A DNA stretch of 64,000 nt, taken from NCBI GenBank assembly GCA_963745035.1, contig CAVUVW010000014.1, positions 192,001 through 256,000 of the forward strand, given 5' to 3'. The DNA is from an uncultured delta proteobacterium. Lineage in GTDB: Bacteria > Desulfobacterota > Binatia > UBA9968. The notes under the pieces were generated by a model. It did not search any database. It was not told the DNA's origin and saw only the letters and a list, made by a program, of their open reading frames with translations. Of the stretch, positions 694 through 23,225 are shown in pieces. The position numbers and the translations under genes were made by a program. Every line of letters starts with the position of its first letter. Position 1 is the stretch's first letter.

Positions 694-781
694 ACTTGTA
701 TGATGGATGTCGGCTCTGAACCGGGAGTGCTCTGCTACAATGCCCGAAACGCGAAAGGCATTGTGCAAGGAGGCACTCAGC

Positions 782-1915
782 ATGGGACACAAAGCGTTTA
801 TACCACAAGAGTACGATGTGTTTGCGGGCTTGGACGTAGATAAAAGAAGCATCTCGGTGACCTTTAGCAACCATCAGCAAGGATTTGTCCGATCGTTGCA
901 CATGCCGTACAGCGTGGAGCACTTGCTCAAGCACGTACGCAAGCATTATCCCGATCAGAAGGTTGCGTTTGTCTATGAAGCTGGACCGACGGGGTATGGA
1001 TTGTATGATGGGCTTTCGGCCAGGGGTATAACTGCTTGGTGGCGGCACCTTCGATGATCCCTCGAGCTCCCGGGCAAAGAGTCAAAACCAATCGCCTCGA
1101 CAGCCGAGGGTTGTCGGAGAGCTTGCGCGGTGGACAGTTGAAGAGCATTCAGTGCCTTCGCCCATTTATCGAGAGCTTCGCCATCTCACTCAGCTGCGCG
1201 ACACCTTGGTCAGTGAAGTGGCGGGGATGAAGCAGCGGATTCAATCGCTGTTGCTGTTTGAGGGGATCGCTTTCCCAGCGGCTCCCGCTGGGAGCCGCTG
1301 GTCTTTGAAAGTGAAGAGCCAACTGAGGAAACTTCAGTGCTCTAAGAGCATGCGCTTTAAACTCGATCAGTTGCTCGACAACGTGGAGTTTTCTGAGAAG
1401 CAGGTCGTGAAAGTGACCAAAGAGATTCGCAAGCTCTGTCAGAACGATCCTGAACTGGCGCAGTGCATGAAGTATATGATGAGCGTTTGTGGCATCGGCT
1501 GGATTGTGGCCAGTCAGCTCCTGGCTCGTATCGGTGATTGGCGGGAACTTAAAAACGTGCGTCAGCTGGCAGGGTTTTTGGGGCTGGTTCCGAGTGAGGA
1601 CTCTACGGGAGAGAAAACCGATCGAGGCTCGATCACCGCACGGGACATGGCCGCCTGAGGAGTAAACTCATCCAAGCGGCCTGGTCGGCGATTCGCCAAG
1701 ATGGTGAACTTCGGGAGTTTTACAGTTCGGTATGCCGCAGACACCCGCGGCATATGGGTCCGCGAGTCGCCATCGTCGCCGTGGCGCGCAAGCTCAGCAC
1801 CCGGATTGCTGCGGTGTTGATGGAACAACGGCCCTATGTGATGAGACAAAAAGTTCATTCAGCTCCTTTGACCCAAGAGGAGACATCGCCCCAGGGAACG
1901 GCTCGACGACTTTGA
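782..1915 (+). pseudogene. IS110-family transposase/recombinase, frameshifted
   Basis: Matches the intact ORF at 20670-21806 but lacks single C residues near 1020, 1151 and 1637; real decay or sequencing error. Confidence 0.85.
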
Positions 1916-2099
1916 GAACCGGGAGAAAGAAACTCCTGACGGTTCGATCCTTGAGACAGAGATCCCGGGGCTTTGTGCCTTAGAGAGGGGCGCATTTTAA
2001 GTCAGTGTGACGGCCGGGTGCCGTGCCACGCATAGCAGCAAGTCTCTCTTGGCCGGGAAAGAAGAAGGGATAAACTAAGAGCATTCGCGGTGTAGCGAC
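1916..2099 (+). ncRNA. Putative bridge/seek RNA in the right end of IS copy 1
   Basis: 5' hairpin 1916-1945; target-like GTTCGATCCTTGAG 1942-1955; donor guides CATAGCAG 2031-2038 and CAAGTCT 2039-2045 inside a CGGCCGG/TTGGCCG stem; boundaries approximate. Confidence 0.75.
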
Positions 2100-2171
2100 T
2101 TGACATCCACATAGCAGCTAGTCGAAGGACTCCGATAATTTGTTTGGCAACCAGCTAATCGATAACCCACT

Positions 2172-19193: not shown

Positions 19194-19272
19194 GTTTTTC
19201 TCCTTTGGCTGATGTTCTCTCAGTTCTCAATTGACATAGCACTGCGTTGTTGAATATTCATCTTGGATGAAG

Positions 19273-19432
19273 GTTCAAGCTATTCAATGGTTCGACACGC
19301 TCACCATGAGCGGCTCGGATTCCGCTCGTCCTCAGCGAAGTCGAAGGATGGGCTCCGTTCAAAACGTCTTGAACGGTTTGAACGGAGGCATCGCGCCGGT
19401 TGAACGGAGTGACCGAAGGGAACGGTTGAACG
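19273..19432. repeat. Composite GTTCAA/TTGAAC repeat with a nested TTCGAC...GTCGAA hairpin; unoccupied homolog of the IS site
   Basis: Colinear with 20509-20581 plus 22009-22104; site reads GTCCTC-AG-CGAAGTCGAAGG. Confidence 0.9.
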
Positions 19433-19450
19433 CACAGTTTGGAGGAGCAA

Positions 19451-20494
19451 ATGAAGTCATCAATCCTGGCGATTCTGCTTGTGATGCTCGCGGTCGAGGT
19501 TGGATGGTGCCAATCCGCGCCGCCCAAGACCGCCGCCGACCTGGCGAAATATATGGGCGCCGATCGCGAGCGCGTGCTTTACGACGGCGCGAAAAAGGAA
19601 GGCAAGCTCGTCTGGTACACGTCGCTCACCATCTATAAAGAGATGGCCAAGTCCTTCGAAGCGCGCTATCCCGGCGTCACCGTGGAGCCCTATCGCGCCA
19701 CCGCGGTGAATCTCGTCAGCCGGATACTCAGCGAGGGACAAAGCAAGCGCTACCTCGTCGATGTCATCGAGACCACGCCAGGCTCGCTGATGCTGGTACG
19801 CGATAACAAGCTGCTCTTGCCCTACAACTCGCCGCATCTCGCCGCCTATCCGGAAAACTCGAAGGACAAGGCGCCGGGCGGTTTGTTCTACACCAGCGTG
19901 GATCGCGAATCGTACGCCGGCATCGGTTACAACAAAAATGCGATTCCAGCCGCCGACGTGCCGAAAAGCTGGAACGACCTGCTCAAGCCTTCGCTCAAAG
20001 GCAAGATCAGCATCAGCAACGAGGAAATCGCCACGCGGGTGGTCGGCTCGATGCTGAAAGAAAAAGGCGAAGGATTCATCAAGCAACTGGCGGCCCAGGA
20101 GATCAAACAGCACGGTCTCCCCGCGCTCGGCCTGAACGAGCTGATCGTCTCGGGCGAGGTGCCGCTCTCGTTTACCGCCGTCGACAGCAACGTGCGATTG
20201 GCCGCCGCGAGGGGCGCGCCCATCGCGTGGCTCCCCGGCGATCTCGTGCCCGCCAACGCGGGCAGCCTGGGCGCCTTCTTACATCCGCCGCATCCGCACG
20301 CGGCGCTGCTGTTCATCGATTTCATGATCGGTCCGGAAGGGCAAAAATTGTTCTCGGAAAAATACGGCTACGGCAGCCCGCGCAAGGAGCACCCCTTCAA
20401 ACGTTGGTATCCCGAGCAGGGACTATCGAGCTATGACTACGCCAACACCATCGAGAAGTGGAACAAGATTTTGCTGCAAATATCGAGGAAATGA
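19451..20494 (+). CDS. Extracellular solute-binding protein (AfuA/Fe3+-like family)
   Basis: Signal peptide; AKKEGKLVWYTS, PHPHAALLFIDF. Confidence 0.85.
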   Translation: MKSSILAILLVMLAVEVGWCQSAPPKTAADLAKYMGADRERVLYDGAKKEGKLVWYTSLTIYKEMAKSFEARYPGVTVEPYRATAVNLVSRILSEGQSKRYLVDVIETTPGSLMLVRDNKLLLPYNSPHLAAYPENSKDKAPGGLFYTSVDRESYAGIGYNKNAIPAADVPKSWNDLLKPSLKGKISISNEEIATRVVGSMLKEKGEGFIKQLAAQEIKQHGLPALGLNELIVSGEVPLSFTAVDSNVRLAAARGAPIAWLPGDLVPANAGSLGAFLHPPHPHAALLFIDFMIGPEGQKLFSEKYGYGSPRKEHPFKRWYPEQGLSSYDYANTIEKWNKILLQISRK

Positions 20495-20612
20495 ACGCTC
20501 TAGCAAGTGTTCAAAACGTTCAAGCCGTTCAATGGTTCGACACGCTCACCATGAGCGGCTCGGTTTGCCGCTCGTCCTGAGACTTGTATGATGGATGTCG
20601 GCTCTGAACCGG

Positions 20613-20666
20613 GAGTGCTCTGCTACAATGCCCGAAACGCGAAAGGCATTGTGCAAGGAGGCACTC
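20613..20666 (+). promoter_or_regulatory. Left-end hairpin covering the transposase Shine-Dalgarno (also 725-778)
   Basis: GAGTGC/GCACTC and ACAATGCC/GGCATTGT stems enclose AAGGAGG just before the ATG. Confidence 0.65.
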
Positions 20667-20669
20667 AGC

Positions 20670-21806
20670 ATGGGACACAAAGCGTTTATACCACAAGAGT
20701 ACGATGTGTTTGCGGGCTTGGACGTAGATAAAAGAAGCATCTCGGTGACCTTTAGCAACCATCAGCAAGGATTTGTCCGATCGTTGCACATGCCGTACAG
20801 CGTGGAGCACTTGCTCAAGCACGTACGCAAGCATTATCCCGATCAGAAGGTTGCGTTTGTCTATGAAGCTGGACCGACGGGGTATGGATTGTATGATGGG
20901 CTTTCGGCCCAGGGGTATAACTGCTTGGTGGCGGCACCTTCGATGATCCCTCGAGCTCCCGGGCAAAGAGTCAAAACCAATCGCCTCGACAGCCGAGGGT
21001 TGTCGGAGAGCTTGCGCGGTGGACAGTTGAAGAGCATTCACGTGCCTTCGCCCATTTATCGAGAGCTTCGCCATCTCACCCAGCTGCGCGACACCTTGGT
21101 CAGTGAAGTGGCGGGGATGAAGCAGCGGATTCAATCGCTGTTGCTGTTTGAGGGGATCGCTTTCCCAGCGGCTCCCGCTGGGAGCCGCTGGTCTTTGAAA
21201 GTGAAGAGCCAACTGAGGAAACTTCAGTGCTCTAAGAGCATGCGCTTTAAACTCGATCAGTTGCTCGACAACGTGGAGTTTTCTGAGAAGCAGGTCGTGA
21301 AAGTGACCAAAGAGATTCGCAAGCTCTGTCAGAACGATCCTGAACTGGCGCAGTGCATGAAGTATATGATGAGCGTTTGTGGCATCGGCTGGATTGTGGC
21401 CAGTCAGCTCCTGGCTCGTATCGGTGATTGGCGGGAACTTAAAAACGTGCGTCAGCTGGCAGGGTTTTTGGGGCTGGTTCCGAGTGAGGACTCTACGGGA
21501 GAGAAAACCGATCGAGGCTCGATCACCCGCACGGGACATGGCCGCCTGAGGAGTAAACTCATCCAAGCGGCCTGGTCGGCGATTCGCCAAGATGGTGAAC
21601 TTCGGGAGTTTTACAGTTCGGTATGCCGCAGACACCCGCGGCATATGGGTCCGCGAGTCGCCATCGTCGCCGTGGCGCGCAAGCTCAGCACCCGGATTGC
21701 TGCGGTGTTGATGGAACAACGGCCCTATGTGATGAGACAAAAAGTTCATTCAGCTCCTTTGACCCAAGAGGAGACATCGCCCCAGGGAACGGCTCGACGA
21801 CTTTGA
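20670..21806 (+). CDS. IS110-family transposase (RuvC-like DEDD domain plus Tnp20 domain), 378 aa
   Basis: AGLDVDK, YEAGPTG, KTNRLD, CGIG, GLVPSEDSTG, GSITRTG, AIVAVARKL; SD AAGGAGG. Confidence 0.96.
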   Translation: MGHKAFIPQEYDVFAGLDVDKRSISVTFSNHQQGFVRSLHMPYSVEHLLKHVRKHYPDQKVAFVYEAGPTGYGLYDGLSAQGYNCLVAAPSMIPRAPGQRVKTNRLDSRGLSESLRGGQLKSIHVPSPIYRELRHLTQLRDTLVSEVAGMKQRIQSLLLFEGIAFPAAPAGSRWSLKVKSQLRKLQCSKSMRFKLDQLLDNVEFSEKQVVKVTKEIRKLCQNDPELAQCMKYMMSVCGIGWIVASQLLARIGDWRELKNVRQLAGFLGLVPSEDSTGEKTDRGSITRTGHGRLRSKLIQAAWSAIRQDGELREFYSSVCRRHPRHMGPRVAIVAVARKLSTRIAAVLMEQRPYVMRQKVHSAPLTQEETSPQGTARRL

Positions 21807-21990
21807 GAACCGGGAGAAACAAACTCCTGACGGTTCGATCCTTGAGACAGAGATCCCGGGGCTTTGTGCCTTAGAGAGGGGCGCATTTTAAGTCAGTGTG
21901 ACGGCCGGGTGCCGTGCCACGCATAGCAGCAAGTCTCTCTTGGCCGGGAAAGAAGAAGGGATAAACTAAGAGCATTCGCGGTGTAGCGAC
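21807..21990 (+). ncRNA. Putative bridge/seek RNA in the right end of IS copy 2
   Basis: Donor guides CATAGCAG 21922-21929 and CAAGTCT 21930-21936; target-like GTTCGATCCTTGAG 21833-21846; several hairpins; boundaries approximate. Confidence 0.78.
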
Positions 21991-21996
21991 TTGACA
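21991..21996 (+). promoter_or_regulatory. -35 half of the circle-junction promoter (-10 TATGAT at 20587-20592; copy 1: 2100-2105 and 699-704)
   Basis: Joined ends read TTGACA-TCCACATAGCAGACTTG (17 nt)-TATGAT. Confidence 0.85.
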
Positions 21997-22126
21997 TCCA
22001 CATAGCAGCGAAGTCGAAGGATTCGCTCCGCTCAAACGTTTTGAACGGCTTGAACGCAGGCGCCGCGCCGGTTGAACGGAGTGACCGAAGGGAACGATTG
22101 AACGATGACTGCCGGCCGGCATTCCC

Positions 22127-22156
22127 TTGACACCTCCGTCAGGCGCACCCTATGAT
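22127..22156 (+). promoter_or_regulatory. Putative sigma70 promoter of the TctC-like gene
   Basis: TTGACA-18 nt-TATGAT. Confidence 0.6.
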
Positions 22157-22196
22157 CCGCGGGTGTTTCCGTTCTAATCGTAGGACCGGAGGGCCG

Positions 22197-23225
22197 ATGA
22201 AACGCTTCGCGTGCGTGCTATTATTTTTGCTGGCATCGACTAGCAATCTCCAAGCTCAGACCCCGTTCTATCAAGGCAAAACTATCCGGATCATCGTCGG
22301 CAATCTCGCCGGTGACGCCTACGATCTTTGGGCGCGAATCTTCGCGCAGCACATGGGCAAATACATCCCGGGAAATCCCACCTTCATCGTGCAGAACATG
22401 ACCGGAGCGGGAGGAGTGGTCGCGGCCAATTACGTTTATTCCGTGGCGAAGCCCGATGGGCTGACGCTGGGCACTTTCGGACCGTCGATGTACTTCGACC
22501 AACTGGCCAGGCGTCCCGAAGTGAAGTTCGACTGGGCGAAATTCACCTGGATCGGCACGCCGGAACAGACGGAATTTATCTTGATCATGCGGACCGATAC
22601 GCCGTACCAATCGATCGAGGACGTGCGCAAGGCCGCGCAGCCGCCGAAATGCGGCGCCACCGGCACGAGCACTTCCGGTTACTACATGCCGAAGTTTCTG
22701 GACGATGGGCTGGGGATCAAGTTCAACATCGTCACCGGGTATCCCGGCGGCGGCGAGATCGATCTCGGCATCGAGCGCGGCGAGCTGCAGTGCCGCAATC
22801 TGACGATCAGCACCTACTTCGCGCGCGAGCCTTTTCTAACCTGGCACAAGAAAGGTTTTGTCCGGCCGATCCTGCAAACGGCGAAGAAAAGAGATCCGCT
22901 CGTTTCCGACGTGCCCTCCATCTATGAGCTCATGGACCAACTCAAAACGCCTGAGGCGACGCGGCGAGTAGCGACCGTCTTGCTCGCGCCCGCGGTTTTC
23001 GGCCGGCCCATGGTGGCGACGCCGGGCGTGCCGCCGGACCGCGTGAAAATGCTGCGTGATGCCTATCACCGCTCGCTCAAAGACCCCGCGCTGCTCGAAG
23101 ACTTGAAGAAGCGGCGTTGGTCGGTGGACGCGATCAGCGGCGAGGAGCTGGCGAAGCTCGCGAAAGAAGTGGTGACCCAGCCGCCCGATGTCGTCGAGCG
23201 GATGATGAAACTCTTGGGTAACTAA
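22197..23225 (+). CDS. Tripartite tricarboxylate transporter substrate-binding protein (TctC/Bug family)
   Basis: FYQGKTIRIIVG, IPGNPTFIVQNMTGAGG, AKPDGLTLG, VTGYPG. Confidence 0.88.
   Translation: MKRFACVLLFLLASTSNLQAQTPFYQGKTIRIIVGNLAGDAYDLWARIFAQHMGKYIPGNPTFIVQNMTGAGGVVAANYVYSVAKPDGLTLGTFGPSMYFDQLARRPEVKFDWAKFTWIGTPEQTEFILIMRTDTPYQSIEDVRKAAQPPKCGATGTSTSGYYMPKFLDDGLGIKFNIVTGYPGGGEIDLGIERGELQCRNLTISTYFAREPFLTWHKKGFVRPILQTAKKRDPLVSDVPSIYELMDQLKTPEATRRVATVLLAPAVFGRPMVATPGVPPDRVKMLRDAYHRSLKDPALLEDLKKRRWSVDAISGEELAKLAKEVVTQPPDVVERMMKLLGN

Follow-up and report, generated by a model that had tools for sequence, protein, structure and literature searches.

We describe an insertion sequence of the IS1111 group whose ends probably each carry one half of a sigma-70-type promoter, which the circular form of the element would reassemble so that it faces the transposase gene. 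In the chromosome, the putative -35 hexamer TTGACA at the right end points outward, and the putative -10 hexamer TATGAT, located 5 nt inside the left end, stands without a good -35 ahead of it. In an excised circle the ends would meet via one AG, and the two hexamers would come to lie 17 nt from each other, facing inward. Transcription from the junction is predicted to start near positions 20599-20601 and to extend across a leader of 70 nt and the transposase gene into the seekRNA/bridge RNA, which overlaps the 3′ end of this gene and continues beyond it. The circle would in this way raise the expression of its own insertion machinery, and integration would dismantle the junction promoter again. 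From the documented behaviour of the family we infer that circles form, that the promoter is active, that the gene and the guide RNA are transcribed together, and how large the boost would be. ISEc11, IS621 and ISPpu10 already have documented junction promoters, and the one predicted here is another case in a new element. The finding itself is ordinary: a circle-assembled promoter, a means of control already known from IS110/IS1111 elements, would also be built into a widespread soil lineage. All positions are those of the window, the whole stretch of 64,000 nt that was analysed, and the element, its features and its target sites are given on the + strand.

Identity, ends and target of the element

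The element is a member of the IS1111 group of the IS110 family, with an RNA-guided DEDD-type transposase, and its insertion site is a REP-like target. It extends from 20582 to 22008 (1427 bp including one AG core). The 7.43-Mb genome contains five near-identical copies with identical ends and different flanks. A second copy is found in the window at 694-2117 (1424 bp, + strand), with three 1-nt deletions as compared to the studied copy. The AG core dinucleotide is present at both junctions (20580-20581 on the left, 22007-22008 on the right) and borders both sides in 5/5 copies, the left and right junctions having nothing longer in common. An uninterrupted paralogous target site (19324-19347), within an intact copy of the REP-like element, contains a single AG at 19334-19335. 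A shared core of 2 nt, site-specific insertion and no longer target duplication are the traits of the IS110 family, and they were all observed here. The left target half is GTCCTG (20574-20579); TCCTG was found in four of the five copies and CGTTG in the remaining one, and relatives from metagenomes have similar left flanks. The right target half CGAAGTCGAAGG (22009-22020) is complementary to the guide at 21798-21805. After the AG, the right flank reads C-N2-3-GTCGAAG in all five copies, with the final G in four of them. The next gene downstream carries its own TTGACA-18-TATGAT at 22127-22156.

The tips of the element are followed, 5-6 nt inward, by subterminal inverted repeats made of an 8-bp and a 4-bp part with a 1-nt bulge between them, which falls within the 7-17 bp typical of the IS1111 group. 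The left repeat (20587-20599) consists of TATG (20587-20590), an extra A (20591) and TGGATGTC (20592-20599), and the right repeat (21993-22004) of GACATCCA (21993-22000) followed by CATA (22001-22004). The left non-coding end measures 88 nt (20582-20669) versus 202 nt for the right one (21807-22008); the longer non-coding region, with the guide RNA, thus lies 3′ of the transposase gene, as in other members of the group. Because one donor guide reads the right end together with the AG, and the other the AG together with the left end, the substrate of recombination has one AG. The ends and the single AG core assigned by an earlier sequence-only reading are therefore borne out by the five copies with identical ends, by the empty site with one AG and by donor guides running through one AG. 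The same reading had taken the 17-nt spacing between the hexamers as independent support for the ends. This argument is circular, and the ends rest on the other evidence.

The transposase gene (20670-21806) starts with an ATG at 20670 and comprises 378 codons and a stop. It is preceded by the ribosome-binding site AAGGAGG (20655-20661), 8 nt ahead of the ATG and conserved in relatives. The protein combines the N-terminal DEDD/RuvC-like domain and the C-terminal Transposase_20 domain of the IS110 family (PF01548, 54.3 bits for a cut-off of 29; PF02371, 76.9 bits for a cut-off of 21.3). It also matches NF033542 along the entire profile (217.9 bits for a cut-off of 140; positions 1-343 of 343), as well as the chains of the ISCro4 and IS621 transposases. 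These profile matches agree with the initial assignment of the element to the IS110/IS1111 type.

Putative promoter halves and the predicted circle junction

The putative -35 half, TTGACA, is located at 21991-21996 in the right end and is followed by 10 nt (21997-22006) and the AG (22007-22008). The putative -10 half, TATGAT, is located at 20587-20592 in the left end and is preceded by the AG (20580-20581) and 5 nt (20582-20586). A junction built from slices of the window, with the ends joined by one AG, gave TTGACA-17-TATGAT, which matches the consensus at 11 of 12 positions. The same junction yielded nothing at or above 10/12 with spacers of 15, 16, 18 or 19 nt. The claim of two hexamers held 17 nt apart by one AG can thus be read directly from the positions. 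The hexamers also overlap the inverted repeats as proposed: TTGACA shares 4 nt with the right repeat, and TATGAT covers TATG and 1 nt of the left repeat. The arrangement is that of a junction promoter, with the -35 in the right end, the -10 in the left end, a spacing within 16-18 nt once joined and an orientation on the + strand toward the transposase gene.

We then compared this match with the background of the genome. Sites scoring at least 11/12 numbered 13 for a spacer of 17 nt and 49 for spacers of 16-18 nt (7.43 Mb, both strands, 14.85 million positions). The number expected with an AG within the spacer is about 5e-5, a value based on the genome-wide background rate, the IS ends being less G+C-rich than the genome. 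The junction match exceeds chance expectation. A reversed-sequence control contained 13 sites at spacers 16-18 versus the 49 of the real genome, and 19 of these 49 are located outside long open frames, a fraction that makes up 11% of the genome. It thus seems that the host makes use of this consensus, to which the TTGACA-18-TATGAT of the next gene downstream also points. In the five integrated copies, the best -35 match located 16-18 nt before the -10 reaches only 1-4 of 6 positions, versus 6/6 in the circle.

Outward -35 hexamers of other IS families can activate neighbouring genes, and by analogy the right-end TTGACA of integrated copies might activate the genes to its right through a -10 in the flank. 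The conserved target 17 nt past TTGACA is, however, TCGAAG, which matches TATAAT at 3/6 positions only, and the downstream gene has a TTGACA-18-TATGAT of its own (22127-22156). We regard an activating role of this kind as highly improbable.

The two hexamers are conserved among relatives. In 82 of them the left-end hexamer is TATGAT (66), TATGAG (14), TATGAA (1) or CATGAT (1), and TTGACA is kept in 68 of the 69 recognisable right ends. The distance from hexamer to tip is constant within the matched end blocks. The sequence GACATCCA is conserved at 97-100% per position in 39 distinct right ends, and the CTT that opens the right-end block, just ahead of the inverted repeat, is conserved at 100% with no partner in the repeat. 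The one-base asymmetry of the inverted repeat yields TATGAT instead of TATGTG. Since the hexamers lie in or beside the inverted repeats, next to the region pairing with the donor guides, their conservation could stem from recombination alone. They would then be kept only as parts of the recombination site, their likeness to a promoter would be incidental, and the working promoter, in the integrated copy and in the circle alike, would be a resident -10 at 20624-20629. The hexamer TATGAG, a -10 without its final T, favours such an explanation. Its 14 carriers have at least five different right-target guides, which indicates that this variant lineage moved to new targets. Three observations argue against it. 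Chance would very rarely place a 6/6 -35 at a distance of exactly 17 nt from a 5/6 -10. The CTT conserved in the right end lacks a counterpart in the inverted repeat. Finally, a distant relative with 35% protein identity and different ends, present in three copies in genome G264, again yields a promoter-like pair, TTGACA-18-CATAAT, if an AG core is assumed. Altogether, we consider it unlikely that the hexamers serve recombination only, and the junction promoter remains the preferred reading. A further group (L017/L020/L021), with TTGCTT around 16 nt from TATGAT, was left uncounted because its right boundary is ambiguous.

Circle junctions were searched for in three sets of sequences. A 30-nt junction probe gave no match with up to 2 mismatches on both strands of the 28 contigs of the assembly, and a 24-nt probe gave none with up to 3 mismatches in 120 fetched loci. 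Over 20400-22200, no joint from right end to left end was present in the Logan contigs of X1, X5 and X7 (DNA) and X15 (RNA), a search that covered four of the 24 listed runs at the level of contigs, which drop rare forms and carry no RNA ends. Joints skipping 1427-1502 nt (for instance from 20578 to 22006 in X15, depth 3.2) and two back-joints from 22055 to 20509 were considered as products of excision and rejected, as both types fit, with mismatches, other copies of the REP-like element.

The leader and its candidate resident -10

The leader contains a candidate resident -10, TACAAT (20624-20629), preceded by TGc and with no -35. Its pattern TAnnnT is conserved: T1, A2 and T6 are invariant in 56/56 distinct 5′ leaders, while positions 3-5 vary to give ten types of hexamer. 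Such an invariant frame with a variable middle is expected of a -10, and it counts in favour of a resident element acting as the working promoter. The best -35 match located at 16-18 nt from it does not exceed 3/6 in any of the 57 distinct left ends scored, and the TG is found ahead of TAnnnT in only part of the relatives; a promoter of this kind would therefore be weak. The junction and resident promoters are, moreover, not mutually exclusive.

Upstream of this hexamer, the anti-Shine-Dalgarno stretch GAGTGCTCT (20613-20621) is predicted to pair with nucleotides 20657-20666 in the minimum free energy fold, and the resident TAnnnT is located between the two pairing halves. Transcripts from the resident -10 would not contain this stretch, another point in favour of the resident hexamer as the working promoter. 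In the 56 relatives the energy of the duplex averages -10.8 kcal/mol, and each haplotype favours its own partner over that of the other (-10.9 vs -8.5 kcal/mol for GTGC, n=37; -11.7 vs -9.1 for GTCC, n=15), a gain of around 2.5 kcal/mol in a comparison of two haplotypes from kin that are not independent. These data could mean that the junction promoter is active and its transcripts are poorly translated, the leader folding back onto the ribosome-binding site; the circle would then boost mainly the guide RNA, and translatable mRNA for the transposase would originate at the resident -10. The z-score of the leader fold is, however, only -1.76 for the single sequence, and the stem was not returned by RNAalifold on the 56-sequence alignment. 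Besides, any Shine-Dalgarno sequence pairs with a CU-rich stretch. We hold this fold-back control to be possible yet rather improbable, and a junction promoter that serves both gene and guide RNA is retained as the main proposal.

The resident -10 and the anti-Shine-Dalgarno pairing nevertheless suggest that the transposase is not made only, or mainly, from junction transcripts. The sequence-only reading had proposed strong expression from the circle exclusively. This statement is weakened by the resident TAnnnT, by the anti-Shine-Dalgarno pairing and by TATGAG in 14/82 relatives.

Guide RNA, known systems and the clade

A seekRNA/bridge RNA of about 190 nt is predicted at 21760-21945, overlapping the last 15 codons of the transposase gene. 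Its closing stem pairs 21764-21775 with 21933-21943 in both the consensus and the single-sequence folds, and the region forms a conserved block in relatives. Rfam provided no family matching the guide RNA, the only two hits being sub-threshold 'uup' matches in the REP-like flanks. The right-target guide CGACTTTG (21798-21805) overlaps the stop codon and is the complement of the right flank's + strand. The left-target guide ATCCTTG, followed by AG and AC (21838-21848), is in the sense of the left junction with one extra T. Guides and flanks vary together in a set of about 70 relatives. For the right-target guide, the longest exact match to its own flank averages 5.5, compared to 3.83 for shuffled partners (maximum 4.37 in 1000 shuffles). 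For the left-target guide (21838-21844) the mean match is 3.4, compared to 2.99 (maximum 3.38 in 1000). The guide complementary to the top strand thus precedes, in 5′ position, the one matching the bottom strand, which is the order of the IS1111 group. The left-donor guide CATAGCAG (21922-21930) is in the sense of the right end up to and including the AG, with one further base that tracks the first base of the right flank, and the right-donor guide AAGTCT (21931-21936) is the reverse complement of AG and the 4 nt with which the left end begins. The conserved structured block, the predicted fold and the covariation of guides with flanks corroborate the placement of a guide RNA downstream of the gene encoding the transposase. 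The ends, core, target and guide RNA are now fixed for the element, an aid to annotation, and the ~70 natural relatives in which guides and flanks are matched constitute a small natural record of retargeting by an RNA-guided recombinase.

Several other assignments in this region were discarded. CTCCTGA (21824-21830) as the left-target guide does not vary with the left flank and pairs inside a stem. The hairpin 21865-21885 as a terminator is part of the guide RNA and has a run of T that relatives do not conserve. The donor guide showed no clean covariation with the left-end variant ACCTG. Deeper bins at 21742-21863 in X15 (RNA) were not retained as expression of the guide RNA: the three DNA runs all show the same excess over the gene, which points to a sequence common to many relatives and not to transcription.

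The source on ISEc11 is said to be Prosseda et al. 2006. As stated in the portions consulted of four papers, junction promoters are established in IS110/IS1111 circles (PMC11187229, PMC13626964, PMC12288879, PMC11208160), in line with the premise of the initial proposal. In ISEc11 (IS1111 family, E. coli/Shigella), the abutted ends of the circle form a -35/-10 junction promoter, and the element showed no further promoter as far as the available excerpt of PMC11187229 goes. According to the same excerpt, ISEc11 resembles the present element by its DEDD-type transposase, its subterminal inverted repeats, a longer non-coding region with a seekRNA 3′ of the gene, and a top-strand-complementary guide 5′ of the bottom-strand-matching one (PMC11187229). 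It differs by a short linear target as opposed to the REP-like element, and by a circle and a promoter that were demonstrated at the bench (PMC11187229) and are predicted here. The present element also has the conserved internal -10-like hexamer. ISPa11, another IS1111-family member, shares a REP element as target, a circle (predicted in our case) and a seekRNA downstream of the gene; the host and the REP are different (PMC11187229, in part).

In Pseudomonas putida, the accessible sections of PMC12288879 report a strong hybrid promoter for ISPpu10 and, for ISPpu9, circles that form without a junction promoter. Both elements have repetitive extragenic palindromes as targets and an AG dinucleotide as the point of recombination, as here, but they are described as IS110-family with a bridge RNA upstream of the gene, and reporter fusions were tested there while the present junction promoter is predicted (PMC12288879, same sections). 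ISPpu9, with its native promoter, is a precedent in favour of the hexamers serving recombination only (PMC12288879, same sections). For IS621 (IS110 group, E. coli), a junction promoter was shown by RNA-seq (PMC13626964, in part). From the extracts of PMC11208160 and PMC13626964, its bridge RNA has target and donor loops whose guides span both sides of a 2-nt core, and its integrated form is weakly expressed with a boost after excision, which is predicted for the present element. The same extracts place the IS621 bridge RNA in the left end, right behind the junction promoter, and give CT as the core, versus AG here (PMC11208160, PMC13626964). The present guide RNA comes after the gene and must consequently be co-transcribed or processed. 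The similarity between the two transposases is weak (46.4 bits, E 2.7e-11).

The catalytic residues of IS621 are, we presume, D11, E60, D102, D105 and the nucleophile S241. Residues were mapped by alignment to chain 8wt6_A, assuming a 2-residue offset in the deposited chain. On this offset-dependent alignment, the present clade differs from IS621 (PDB 8wt6) at two of these positions. An Asn stands opposite D102, within KTNR[LI]D in 80/80 loci of the clade, versus D in 24/24 distant relatives. A Thr following a Ser stands opposite S241, as STG in 76/77 clade loci versus SG in 22/25 distant relatives. This soil clade is evidently mobile and was retargeted many times. It is conceivable that these features, a D-E-N-D motif and a Thr in place of the nucleophile in a mobile and much retargeted clade, go together with a two-promoter design and define a variant lineage of bridge/seek-RNA recombinases. 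In such a design, the resident -10-only promoter would provide a translatable transposase mRNA, the leader of the junction promoter would fold onto the ribosome-binding site, and excision would mostly boost the guide RNA and not the protein. Taken as a whole, this combination appears doubtful to us. The apparently unusual residues of the clade at two catalytic positions might nevertheless interest those who engineer bridge recombinases.

Ends, core and target of the element

Direct reading of the window sequence confirmed all the letters quoted for the two ends of the insertion sequence. The right end carries TTGACA (21991-21996), followed by 10 nt and then by AG (22007-22008), and the left end carries TATGAT (20587-20592), preceded by AG (20580-20581) and 5 nt. 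The inverted repeats pair TGGATGTC (20592-20599) with GACATCCA (21993-22000) and TATG (20587-20590) with CATA (22001-22004), the left arm having one additional A at 20591.

Five copies of the element were found in the genome (7.43 Mb, 28 contigs), with identical ends and different outer flanks. They differ at eight places, none of them in the ends, and the differences comprise five base substitutions, three single-base deletions confined to a single copy, and a 2-nt insertion. Each copy is bordered on the left by (G)TCCTG-AG (CGTTG-AG in one copy) and on the right by AG-C(2-3 nt)GTCGAAG, and the left and right junctions of the five copies share nothing but AG. The element spans 1427 bp (20582-22008) if a single AG is included. 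At the studied locus it splits a REP-like palindromic element of around 170-200 bp (20465-20579 and 22009-22110), the centre of which reads ..GTCCT(C/G)-AG-CGAAGTCGAAGG..; an intact paralogue (19262-19435), 1.2 kb upstream, contains GTCCTC-AG-CGAAGTCGAAGG with one AG (19324-19347). The end assignment and the single AG core proposed in the sequence-only reading are right, on the basis of the five copies, this empty paralogous site and the donor guides of the guide RNA. Because of the copies and the empty site, the ends hold independently of the promoter.

A search of the genome for the target core gave 76 matches under loose and 13 under strict criteria. Relatives of the insertion sequence occupy like sites in soil metagenome contigs as well as in MAGs that carry the labels Binatia, Sulfotelmatobacter and delta proteobacterium, and the right half of the REP-like element gives sub-threshold Rfam 'uup' matches. 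In the second copy in the window (694-2117, 1424 bp), the transposase gene lacks single nucleotides at three places compared with the studied copy, which reflects either frameshifts or assembly errors. In the copy on C10, a contig of the same genome, 2 nt are inserted close to the 3′ end of the transposase gene. In two fetched related loci, the left half-target and AG are duplicated in tandem directly left of the element, as a 21-nt unit in L006 (around 118-161) and a 12-nt unit in L008 (around 1083-1108), each present twice and each beginning with AC, as does the left end. These duplications may be traces of half-site recombination.

The predicted promoter across the circle junction

Joining window slices of the right end and the left end through a single AG produced TTGACA-17-TATGAT, as had been claimed, with 11 of 12 positions matching TTGACA/TATAAT; at spacers of 15, 16, 18 and 19 nt, no match across the junction reached 10/12. 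Sites of at least 11/12 occur 13 times at spacer 17 and 49 times at spacers 16-18 in the 14.85 million positions of the genome. At these rates, around 5 × 10⁻⁵ such sites whose spacer contains the core would be expected; the estimate rests on the genome-wide background, and the G+C content of the ends is lower than that of the genome. The 49 sites at spacers 16-18 compare with 13 in the reversed sequence, and 19 of the 49 fall in DNA free of long open frames, which makes up 11% of the genome. These figures suggest that the host works with the canonical consensus; the support is moderate, since intergenic DNA is also more A+T-rich. One of the 11/12 sites, TTGACA-18-TATGAT (22127-22156), precedes the gene of a TctC-family binding protein (22152-23225), the next gene right of the insertion sequence.

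The integrated copies are poorer in this respect than the junction, which has a -35 of 6/6 placed 17 nt before TATGAT. Within 16-18 nt of that hexamer, the five copies offer at most 4/6: TTGCCG at 16 nt in the studied locus, TTAACC at 17 nt in the second window copy, and no more than 2/6 in the remaining three. The joined ends were absent from the genome assembly, from 120 fetched loci and from the Logan contigs of four runs; contigs, the form of all the runs available, drop rare forms and reveal no RNA ends, and this absence weighs neither for nor against a circle.

Conservation of the two promoter halves was followed in 85 related loci (80 metagenome contigs and the fetched loci L006 to L010), where a left end was recognisable in 82 and a right end in 69, five further 'right end' matches being spurious. 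TTGACA is kept in 68 of the 69 right ends (TTCACA in L010), and the left hexamer is TATGAT in 66 loci, TATGAG in 14, TATGAA in one and CATGAT in one. No change of length between hexamer and tip was seen within the matched end blocks. Among 39 distinct sequences, conservation is 95-100% at each position of the right-end block CTTGACATCCACATAGCAG and falls sharply just upstream. The CTT that opens the block lacks a counterpart in the left repeat, where the matching positions are only 43-82% conserved, and the additional A of the left repeat yields TATGAT instead of TATGTG. Such asymmetries would be expected if the ends served both as promoter and as recombination sites. The ends of a relative of only 35% protein identity are quite unlike these and were defined from three copies (L014, L035 and L039) within a single complete genome; they would again form TTGACA-18-CATAAT if the core there is AG, as assumed by analogy.

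According to PMC11187229, members of IS1111 and IS110 form circles whose abutted ends create a promoter, found active in a few cases and presumed to transcribe the non-coding region together with the transposase gene; in ISEc11 it was the only promoter seen. The bridge RNA of IS621 is transcribed from the reconstituted junction promoter, as detected by RNA-seq, and the integrated form is weakly expressed through read-through (PMC13626964). For ISPpu10, PMC12288879 describes a strong hybrid promoter and recombination at AG. Read from its sequence, the present element agrees with this pattern feature by feature. Judged by this fit, it belongs to the known kind, and its predicted junction promoter is a further case of an already documented device.

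Guide RNA and transposase

Relatives of 71-93% nucleotide identity conserve a block at around 21744-21945, which is predicted to fold into a multi-branched guide RNA closed by a stem (21764-21775/21933-21943); it matched no Rfam family. Four guide segments were found within it. The right-target guide CGACTTTG (21798-21805) is the complement of the + strand right flank, which reads CAAAGTCG in two copies and CGAAGTCG at the studied locus, where pairing requires one G-U. The left-target guide ATCCTTG-AG-AC (21838-21848) matches the left junction in sense orientation, apart from one additional T. The left-donor guide CATAGCAG (21922-21929) matches the right end through AG, likewise in sense orientation, and the base after it tracks the first right-flank base among relatives. 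The right-donor guide AAGTCT (21931-21936) is the reverse complement of AG and the first four left-end bases. Both donor guides run through one AG, and they independently predict a donor substrate of right end, one AG and left end, hence the 17-nt spacing.

Both target guides covary with the flanks in the 85 related loci. The mean longest exact match of the right guide was 5.5 (54 distinct guide/flank pairs, 67 loci), against 3.83 after shuffling (maximum 4.37 in 1000 shuffles), and that of the left guide was 3.4 (50 distinct pairs, 69 loci) against 2.99 (maximum 3.38), a significance that is overstated because the loci are kin. Clear single cases are the guide CGTTGCGC with the flank GCGCAACG and the guide CGGCTGGC with the flank GCCAGCCG. 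The order, a segment complementary to the top strand 5′ of one complementary to the bottom strand, is that described in PMC11187229 for the IS1111 seekRNAs.

The transposase open frame was hit by the profiles PF01548 and PF02371 and by the NCBIfam equivalog 'IS110 family RNA-guided transposase' (217.9 bits, cut-off 140), and it also resembles the solved transposases of ISCro4 and IS621. Its start is likely the ATG at 20670, 8 nt past AAGGAGG (20655-20661). A longer frame begins at ATG 20595, upstream of the predicted start of the junction transcript, and could not be encoded by such transcripts. The stop codon (21804-21806) falls within the right-target guide, which is programmable, and the final 15 codons sit in the outer stem of the guide RNA, so that retargeting alters the C-terminal tail and the stop position of the protein. 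The subterminal repeats and the non-coding ends of 88 nt (left) and 202 nt (right) identify the element as a member of the IS1111 group in the sense of PMC11187229 and PMC11208160.

Two conserved positions of the transposase are unusual, numbered here in a translation from 20661, three codons ahead of the likely ATG and hence shifted by +3, and compared with IS621 D102 and S241, the third residue of the DEDD motif and the serine nucleophile. At residues 104-110 (20970-20990), Asn aligns with D102; KTNR[LI]D is found in 80/80 metagenome loci of the clade, against Asp at this position in 24/24 distant relatives. At residues 278-280 (21492-21500), Thr, preceded by Ser, aligns with S241, with STG in 76 of 77 clade loci and SG in 22 of 25 distant relatives. 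The clade with Asn and Thr is evidently mobile. In L009, a related locus of 71% nucleotide identity, the transposase frame (1100-2500) is broken, with seven stops in the matched frame.

Possible expression outside the circle

The sequence-only reading had the transposase and guide RNA strongly expressed only from the circle; this interpretation is right in kind, but 'only from the circle' is possibly too strong. In the TATGAG lineage, where the final T of the -10 is missing, the right-target guides are of at least five kinds, and the lineage has therefore been moving. A junction promoter is not universal in the family either, ISPpu9 being without one according to PMC12288879.

The left end also contains a candidate resident -10-only promoter. 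In 56 of 56 aligned distinct 5′ leaders, T1, A2 and T6 are kept in a hexamer (20624-20629, here TACAAT after TGc) whose positions 3-5 vary (TACAAT, TATAGT, TATGAT, TATAAT, TACAGT, TAAAGT, TAAAAT, TATACT, TACACT), a pattern that has the signature of a -10 element; the best -35 match for it is at most 3/6. With this -10-like signature and a poor -35, the left end likely has a weak resident promoter, as does ISPpu10 (PMC12288879). The hexamer lies around 25 nt upstream of the ribosome-binding site.

In the leader of the junction transcript, GAGTGCTCT (20613-20621) is predicted to pair with the Shine-Dalgarno region (20657-20666), the duplex having a mean energy of -10.8 kcal/mol over the 56 leaders. 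For two leader haplotypes, pairing with the own partner is better by around 2.5 kcal/mol than with the cross-partner. RNAalifold on the 56 leaders did not return this stem, and the pairing is for that reason only a lead. It would affect any transcript begun upstream of 20613. The resident TAnnnT lies between the two pairing halves, so that its transcripts would escape; if the pairing is real, the circle promoter would raise guide RNA levels further than protein levels. The pairing is reminiscent of IS10, where a fold-back protects against read-through. At this locus, the gene upstream of the insertion sequence (19439-20494) encodes a solute-binding protein on the same strand, and read-through into the element is therefore possible.
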